A stretch of 10,361 nt of DNA, from positions 1-10,361 of the IMG/VR virus record IMGVR_UViG_2563366976_000003; one strand, given 5' to 3'. The stretch is from a virus. Its lineage: Duplodnaviria; Heunggongvirae; Uroviricota; Caudoviricetes. The notes beneath the pieces were generated by a model, which had not been told where the DNA came from, searched no databases, and saw only the letters and a program-made list of their open reading frames with translations. Both the position numbers and the translations under genes were made by a program. Below, one piece after another: positions 4,215 through 4,436 of this stretch; positions within the stretch are counted from its first letter, which is position 1; each line of letters opens with the position of its first letter.

Positions 4215-4407
4215 GAATCCTCCCGGGCGGGATAATGTTGTGAGTCAGATAAGGAGCAGGCTGAAGTCCGGAAGTTACAGGACAATGGCAGAAGGGAGAC
4301 TACAGCCCGCAATTCGAAAAAGACCGCGCAGTTGCGCAGAGTGATTACTATGGGGTATTATTCGCCAGCTGAAATATTACTTCACGTTTTATTGTTTATT
4401 CCTTGCC

Positions 4408-4436
4408 GCCCGCGTCTCCCAGCGCGGGCTTTTTTT
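4408..4436 (+). terminator. plus-strand intrinsic terminator (GCCCGCG / 8-nt loop / CGCGGGC followed by T7)
   Basis: Perfect 7-bp GC stem at 4408-4414 and 4423-4429, then TTTTTTT at 4430-4436. On the minus strand no T-run follows, so it is unidirectional for plus-strand transcripts. Confidence 0.5.

Follow-up and report, generated by a model that had tools for sequence, protein, structure and literature searches.

A terminator antisense to the late genes of a lambdoid prophage probably ends a copy of the Hfq-binding sRNA EcOnc08/EcOnc21/EcOnc42

A terminator that faces against all of the genes around it raises the question of which RNA, if any, ends there. We addressed this question for a site at 4408-4436 of the window, by which we mean the whole 10,361-nt stretch of viral DNA analyzed here. 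A reading of the letters alone (the sequence-only reading) had described this site as an orphan plus-strand terminator, possibly ending a small RNA of 60-70 nt with its own sigma70-like promoter. We refer below to the plus-strand unit ending at this site as the element.

We scanned the window for terminators and found 21 terminator-like sites, compared with 10.1 +/- 3.4 in shuffled sequences. The list was headed by a plus-strand hairpin, GCCCGCGTCTCCCAGCGCGGGC + TTTTTTTGTC, at 4408-4429, with 8 pairs, of which 7 are G-C, and a loop of 6. The plus strand reads GCCCGCGT-CTCCCA-GCGCGGGC at 4408-4429 and then TTTTTTT at 4430-4436, which gives the G+C-rich stem, short loop and 3' U-tract on a single strand that characterize an intrinsic (Rho-independent) terminator. 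Read on the minus strand, the hairpin has an A-run before the stem and no U-tail, so termination is expected in one direction only. The scan hit and the 7-T tail thus confirmed the claim of a strong one-way terminator. Among 43 unique variants from 96 loci, the terminator varied in the loop (4421, A/T), in the stem (4411, C>A, once; 4429, C>A) and in the length of the T-run (6, 7 or 8). The changes at 4411 and 4429 are uncompensated, and the copies are too alike to reveal compensatory changes. In the Sakai Stx1 prophage Sp15 (locus L008, 3809-3837), the terminator has GCCAGCG for GCCCGCG, a stem mismatch with no compensating change, and the efficiency of termination may therefore differ among copies.

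The window was found to cover the entry into the late genes of an Stx-phage-like lambdoid prophage, in reverse and with the stx gene absent. The features around the terminator are as follows.

2361..4214, minus strand: NanS-p-type sialate O-acetylesterase gene (Pfam DUF1737 + SASA + DUF6645; NanS/SASA family esterase in homologous records)
4315..4339, minus strand: late-strand terminator-like hairpin, CTGCGCAACTGCGCGG + TCTTTTT, lying over the -35-like hexamer of the element (terminator scan)
4408..4436, plus strand: intrinsic terminator with 8-bp stem, 6-nt loop and 7-T tail (terminator scan and fold)
4437..4646, minus strand: STnc100 sRNA, the convergent dyad partner and counterpart of EcOnc05/EcOnc27 (Rfam RF02076, 165.4 bits, E = 4e-38)
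4885..4712, minus strand: divergent STnc100-like unit between two clear copies (30.1 bits against a gathering score of 47, E = 5e-5)
5114..4924, minus strand: further copy of STnc100 (Rfam RF02076)
5439..5190, minus strand: tRNA-Met(CAT)/Arg/Arg (ARAGORN)

The esterase gene, the tRNAs and the two STnc100 copies all lie on the minus strand, as the sequence-only reading had said of the neighbors, and the identical locus of E. coli 042 is annotated likewise in RefSeq. A 121-nt sequence representing the element is 100% identical in that strain. By the annotation of the matching 042 locus, holin, lysozyme and lysis genes follow beyond the esterase gene, whose 5' UTR is antisense to the element. The position of stx in ASU11 (an Stx2 phage), Sakai Sp5 and Sp15 is between the tRNAs and the STnc100 copy. 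The divergent unit at 4712-4885, which has its own terminator at 4741..4718, thus makes three tandem STnc100-family units on the late strand where Stx phages carry stx. For the tRNA at 5364-5439 (minus), which ARAGORN calls Met(CAT), the gene at the corresponding position in Sakai and E. coli 042 is annotated as tRNA-Ile (ileZ, anticodon cat). It belongs to the cluster ileZ-argN-argO that Stx-type phages usually carry behind Q, on its downstream side.

The 3' end of STnc100 at 4437 abuts the end of the plus-strand T-run at 4436, and the terminator therefore stands tail-to-tail with a known sRNA gene. The label "orphan" was mistaken, as this terminator and STnc100 belong to a known pair of convergent sRNAs. 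In Sakai Sp3, 4, 5, 9, 10, 11, 15 and 17, Hfq-binding sRNAs have been described as converging in pairs at exactly this place, with AsxR/EcOnc27 downstream of stx2B as the type example (Tree et al. 2014). Such pairs have been termed "dyads", and their logic has been called unclear (Sy & Tree 2021, PMC7873438).

We found that the plus-strand member of this pair matches RNAs that are already catalogued in E. coli O157 Sakai. Identity over the 97-nt cassette described below is 94.8% to Sp4 and 93.8% to Sp15, and a 75-nt core (window 4362-4436) is 97.3% identical to Sp4. The Hfq-CRAC peak of EcOnc08 was reported at 1179938-1180010 (minus, Sp4), with peaks for EcOnc21 at 1180016-1180101 (minus, Sp4) and EcOnc42 at 2924036-2924118 (plus, Sp15); the three are cross-listed as homologues, each with a northern band of ~271 nt (Tree et al. 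2014, Mol Cell 55:199, Table S2). Because Table S2 refers to an older genome version, its coordinates were moved to NC_002695.2 by means of RNase E-CLASH reads printed with both sequence and coordinates in Waters et al. 2016, which gave an offset of 0 at Sp4 and +135 at Sp15. After this calibration, EcOnc08 corresponds to window 4362-4434, nearly to the base the RNA predicted by the sequence-only reading, and EcOnc21 and EcOnc42 both correspond to window ~4271-4356, also on the plus strand. The peak of the convergent EcOnc05 lands within the STnc100 copy. The element has thus been on record since 2014 as an Hfq-bound RNA, and it is uncharacterized. Binding by Hfq and RNase E and the northern signal come from the literature on the Sakai copies and would apply to the window copy by homology. 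The three RNAs have since been tabulated as a Stx1-phage sRNA with targets "unknown" (Sy & Tree 2021, PMC7873438). Published RNase E-CLASH hybrids of EcOnc21/42 are few and low-scoring (3.2 and 1.2 in the two rows considered), and none is recorded for EcOnc08.

The window element and EcOnc08/21/42 are thus 94-97% identical and share the strand, the tail-to-tail arrangement with STnc100/EcOnc05 and the location upstream of nanS-p. The window copy differs in lying in an stx-less prophage, of the type found in E. coli 042, 55989, CE10 and APEC O18, and it deviates at positions such as 4391 (A/G), loop 4421 and the promoter spacer. A further difference is in length, as the published RNA is ~271 nt whereas the window cassette suggests a unit of 70 nt. 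We consider it probable that the element is this prophage's copy of the Hfq-binding sRNA catalogued as EcOnc08/EcOnc21 in Sp4 and EcOnc42 in Sp15. Under this explanation, the element would be the antisense member of a convergent sRNA dyad located between the late promoter/tRNA/toxin region and nanS-p. It would be transcribed against the late operon, ending at the terminator at 4408-4436 tail-to-tail with STnc100, and its products would include a longer form as well as a primary form of ~70 nt.

To describe these forms, the following features of the plus strand are needed.

~4271..4356, plus strand: upstream part of the longer transcript, corresponding to the Hfq peaks EcOnc21 (Sp4) and EcOnc42 (Sp15) (Table S2 coordinates, CLASH-calibrated)
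4332..4337, plus strand: -35-like hexamer TTGCGC, inside the flank common to AsxR loci (invariant in 43 unique variants)
4340..4436, plus strand: exchangeable sRNA cassette, allelic to the AsxR cassette, with promoter spacer, -10, transcribed body and terminator (locus comparison)
4356..4361, plus strand: -10-like hexamer TATTAT (invariant in 43 unique variants; the pair is below threshold in the promoter scan)
4367..4436, plus strand: predicted short sRNA form, 70 nt, its start placed by analogy with AsxR (fold; matches the EcOnc08 Hfq-CRAC peak)
4369..4389, plus strand: invariant single-stranded stretch CTGAAATATTACTTCACGTTT, a candidate seed (no variable column in 43 variants from 96 loci; unpaired in the centroid fold)

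The extent of the short unit emerged from a comparison of loci. Using a 24-mer of the left flank that the loci share, we retrieved 120 phage contigs and counted them along with the window and other loci. Of the resulting 122 phage loci, 96 carried the window-type cassette and 26 the AsxR type. Either cassette was found between identical left and right flanks (e.g., L041 versus L047/L038). In Sakai Sp5, the flank is homologous to the window through ...CGCGCAGTTGCGCAG (up to 4339) and is followed by the AsxR gene, with an 18-bp spacer, TAAAAT and the AsxR 5' end. The exchanged unit begins directly behind the -35 and closes with the terminator's final T. It occupies 4340-4436, which is exactly the interval singled out by the sequence-only reading.

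The promoter proposed for this unit, TTGCGC and TATTAT about 18 bp apart, does exist on the plus strand with an 18-bp spacer, but at 4332-4361 rather than around 4339-4368. TTGCGC matches the consensus at 3 of 6 positions and TATTAT at 5 of 6, and the pair fell under the threshold of the promoter scan and was hence unlisted. The only plus-strand site that the scan did list nearby was ATGCCA-17-GATAAT at 4208-4236. Between the two invariant hexamers, the spacer varied at 4345, 4349, 4350, 4352 and 4355 among the 43 variants. TTGCGC also stands 18 bp before the AsxR -10, TAAAAT, in Sakai Sp5, and the window and AsxR cassettes alike set a good -10 hexamer at this distance from the shared -35. The 5' end of AsxR has been determined experimentally (Tree et al. 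2014), and the proposed promoter gains indirect support from the -35 and 18-bp spacing that it has in common with this mapped gene. The exchange of cassettes and the invariance of the hexamers form the best available argument for the promoter and for a ~70-nt unit starting near A4367. This argument is not decisive, because the published band is ~271 nt, the Hfq peaks reach upstream and a CLASH read crosses the -10.

That single RNase E-CLASH read, ATATTATTCGCCAGCTGAAA, corresponds to window 4355-4374. Together with the Hfq peak upstream, this published read on a Sakai copy implies that a longer plus-strand transcript through the putative promoter exists. The earlier prediction of a plus-strand RNA of 60-70 nt ending at the hairpin was right, by the published data on near-identical Sakai copies, about an sRNA ending there, and it disagrees in size with the ~271-nt band. 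This bears on a different account of the locus, which we regard as rather doubtful: that the element is mainly a cis-antisense RNA of ~190-270 nt, which would begin close to the 5' end of nanS-p or within it, have full complementarity to the nanS-p leader and end at the terminator. If 271 nt long, it would also cover the nanS-p RBS and start codon, and it would damp nanS-p/late expression or direct processing. The ~271-nt northern band of EcOnc08/21/42 fits such an RNA, as do the EcOnc21/42 Hfq peaks upstream of the cassette and CLASH reads that reach ~window 4249 and span the -10. The promoter-like ATGCCA-17-GATAAT (4208-4236, plus) would yield an RNA of ~194 nt. However, AsxR loci have this upstream flank as well, and the one form given for them is a 54-nt RNA with a mapped primary 5' end. 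The recombining unit, moreover, begins right after the -35 and not at an upstream promoter. The 271-nt form also folds no better than shuffles (z = -0.69), and inspection of the sequence around 4130-4166, where its promoter would be required, found no convincing one. A cis-antisense role is compatible both with the preferred explanation as a copy of EcOnc08/21/42 and with a role in trans. An RNA-seq/RIBO-seq catalogue of EDL933 has no entry for the element beside the STnc100 copies, which says little because AsxR is missing from it as well. The EDL933 RNA ncR1641710 (114 nt, antisense, ~200 nt past STnc100_4) could be a related upstream antisense RNA.

We next consider whether the RNA itself, in addition to its terminator, appears to be under constraint. 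The predicted short form (4367-4436) folds into a 41-nt largely open 5' region followed by the terminator hairpin (-17.9 kcal/mol, z = -2.86, with 1 of 200 shuffles as stable). Apart from the promoter spacer, polymorphism of the cassette among the 43 variants is confined to 4390, 4391, 4397, the loop at 4421, the stem at 4411/4429 and the length of the T-run. These observations bear on the possibility that the hairpin is an insulator only, blocking stray antisense transcription from the nanS-p region before it reaches STnc100, the tRNAs and Q, and that the RNA is functionless. Three terminators do lie within ~130 bp (that of STnc100, 4408-4436 and the late-strand hairpin at 4339..4324, part of the site at 4315-4339), and neither CLASH nor the pairing screen described below points to an RNA target. 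Nevertheless, we judge this possibility to be quite improbable, because conservation is as tight in the 41 nt before the hairpin, 21 of them invariant, as in the hairpin itself, and the whole unit, including the -10, moves as a cassette. The binding of the homologous RNA by Hfq and RNase E in vivo also argues against it. In the late-strand hairpin at 4315-4339, the variants are loop changes or G-U pairs that keep pairing on the minus strand and would be C-A mismatches on the plus strand, which suggests selection on the late-strand RNA.

A small protein was the other product considered, encoded either by a 45-aa ORF (4332..4469, plus) or by a 33-aa ORF (4497..4396, minus). PHANOTATE and other pipelines call small hypothetical ORFs here in the phages phi296 and ASU11. 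The T-run contained in both ORFs has 6, 7 or 8 bases in 25, 69 and 2 loci, respectively, and the frame of both is therefore broken. As the sequence-only reading had noted, no plus-strand ORF here is led by a ribosome-binding site: the 45-aa ORF, the sole one across the site, starts within the -35, crosses the T-run, would be cut by its own terminator and lacks a Shine-Dalgarno sequence. Annotators differ on strand and frame, and neither PHROG nor Pfam gave a match. We regard the protein-coding reading as effectively refuted by the T-run polymorphism and the lack of PHROG and Pfam matches.

To place the element among known sRNAs, we searched Rfam and compared it with the sRNAs of related prophages. 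No Rfam family covers the element in searches at the gathering score and at E <= 10, and STnc100 matches the other strand only. The anti-sRNA models AsxR (RF02703) and AgvB (RF02702) gave no match to it even at E <= 10. The conserved ~42-nt 3' region of the anti-sRNAs, GTATCTCATGC..TTGCCCGAACCCAYTCGGGC, had no match in the element with up to 3 mismatches, and a comparison with this region gave z = -1.2 for the body and z = 4.6 for the terminator. By sequence, the element is not a member of the AsxR/AgvB family. It occupies the same lambdoid slot downstream of pR', converges on an STnc100-type sRNA as they do, and has in common with them the -35 TTGCGC with an 18-bp spacer, a GCCCG...CGGGC terminator and the arrangement of an open 5' region followed by the terminator. 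It differs from them in its unrelated body, which lacks GTATCTCATGC..TTGCCCGAACCCA, in its predicted length (70 nt versus 51-60 nt) and in that no sponge partner was found for it. The best sub-threshold match, OmrA-B (RF00079), reached 25.2 bits against a gathering score of 40; its alignment was mainly to the terminator and would take in the putative -10, and it was rejected.

The shared slot, orientation, -35, terminator type and open 5' region nevertheless suggest that the element could be an anti-sRNA (sponge) like AsxR/AgvB, its 5' region titrating or destabilizing a core Hfq sRNA. We screened 19 core Hfq sRNAs of MG1655 for pairing with a windowed, accessibility-corrected duplex search. 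The best pairing of the element was -7.9 kcal/mol (McaS), within the shuffle background of -8.5 +/- 2.0 (n = 23). In this screen, the AgvB-GcvB control was recovered at -13.1 kcal/mol and the AsxR-FnrS control was missed, which makes the negative result a weak one. An unrestricted RNAduplex search returned long, meaningless duplexes only. With none of the 19 pairings above shuffles, a body that does not resemble the anti-sRNA 3' region (z = -1.2) and AsxR and AgvB models that stay silent, we consider a sponge unlikely. As a separate observation, the conserved GUAUCUCA of AsxR, AgvB and EcOnc03 shows complementarity to GAGGUAUUG, the seed region at the 5' end of OmrA/OmrB (MG1655, L132). The AgvB-OmrA pairing extends to 11 bp (-10.9 kcal/mol) and may be due to chance.

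Other sRNAs of these prophages could also be distinguished from the element. The family of STnc100, EcOnc27, sRNA103 and PasD (RF02076) is its adjoining dyad partner, occurs in the same prophages and is Hfq-binding too, but it lies on the opposite strand with an unrelated sequence, and the element is not part of STnc100. PasA/PasC of EPEC E2348/69 and EcOnc33/51/52 are likewise prophage sRNAs antisense to the late operon beside the sialate esterase gene; they lie downstream of the esterase, whereas the element lies upstream. In PP2 of E2348/69, only 87 bp separate PasD2 from the esterase gene, and the cassette is therefore absent. An identity of the element with PasA, PasB, PasC or PasD was rejected, as none of their probe sequences occurs in the window and PasA is located beyond the esterase. 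HnrS (EcOnc10-12) was rejected as well, being a separate sRNA ~5 kb off with a sequence absent from the window. In the interval from the stop of the esterase gene (2361) to the holin gene (1995..2210, as annotated in E. coli 042), the minus strand carries a strong terminator-like hairpin, AGAGCCATCAGTACTTAACTGGTGGCTTT + TTTTATTG, at 2250-2278, and no terminator of a PasA- or EcOnc33-type antisense sRNA was seen on the plus strand of this interval.

The preferred explanation as a copy of EcOnc08/21/42 extends to how the RNA might act. The gene is a swappable cassette at 4340-4436, with slot and -35 in common with the anti-sRNA AsxR, and its product would probably act as a base-pairing regulator. 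The U-tailed terminator and the U-rich stretch ahead of it would bind Hfq, and the open, invariant 5' region at 4369-4389 would pair with a host or prophage RNA. More tentatively, the EcOnc08-type cassette may have a promoter of its own and encode a ~70-nt regulator that acts independently and depends on Hfq. This allele, the commonest of the slot and present also in non-STEC pathotypes, would rewire a specific host target in lysogens. If this is true, the cassette would be a widespread overlooked regulator, because it has no Rfam family and is unannotated in the records listed.

We then surveyed the distribution of the element. At >=90% identity, the 121-nt element had 1,395 occurrences, spread over 987 of 5,426 complete E. 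coli genomes, and none of the 30 records examined among the matches listed had an annotated feature under the match. The AsxR cassette was found in 291 complete E. coli genomes. The 601-nt stretch at 4200-4800 matches 287 phage records, mostly of Stx-converting phages, and the element was found in both Stx1 and Stx2 phages. To look beyond E. coli, we ran two exact-pattern scans over genomes of 185,579 species, one genome for each, and obtained no match. The genome counts and the empty species scan therefore indicate an accessory element of E. coli prophages.

In pathogenic E. coli, prophage sRNAs of this slot (AsxR, AgvB and StxS, with HnrS nearby) reprogram how the host regulates iron, amino acids, stress and virulence. 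The EcOnc08-type allele is the commonest occupant of the slot, beside stx1 and many stx2 operons, and has no name, Rfam family, known target or annotation in the genome records listed. The exact exchange with AsxR, sharing a -35, and the 21-nt invariant open segment as a candidate seed provide two handles for experiments, and both leave the picture of what kind of element this is unchanged.

The slot holds further variants. A second AsxR-type cassette was found at the equivalent of 4340-4436 in L041, L058, L012, L027, L057 and other IMG/VR loci. Its 5' region, CGATTATAAAAATGTATATCTCATGCTGTTGCCCGAACCCACTCGGGC, is unlike those of AsxR, AgvB and EcOnc03, and it may be a further specificity variant of the anti-sRNAs. 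In one locus (L071), the element stops at the equivalent of window ~4392, after CACGTTTTG, and the sequence goes on as GGTAATGACTCCAACTTACTGATAGTG..., a putative end of an IS1.
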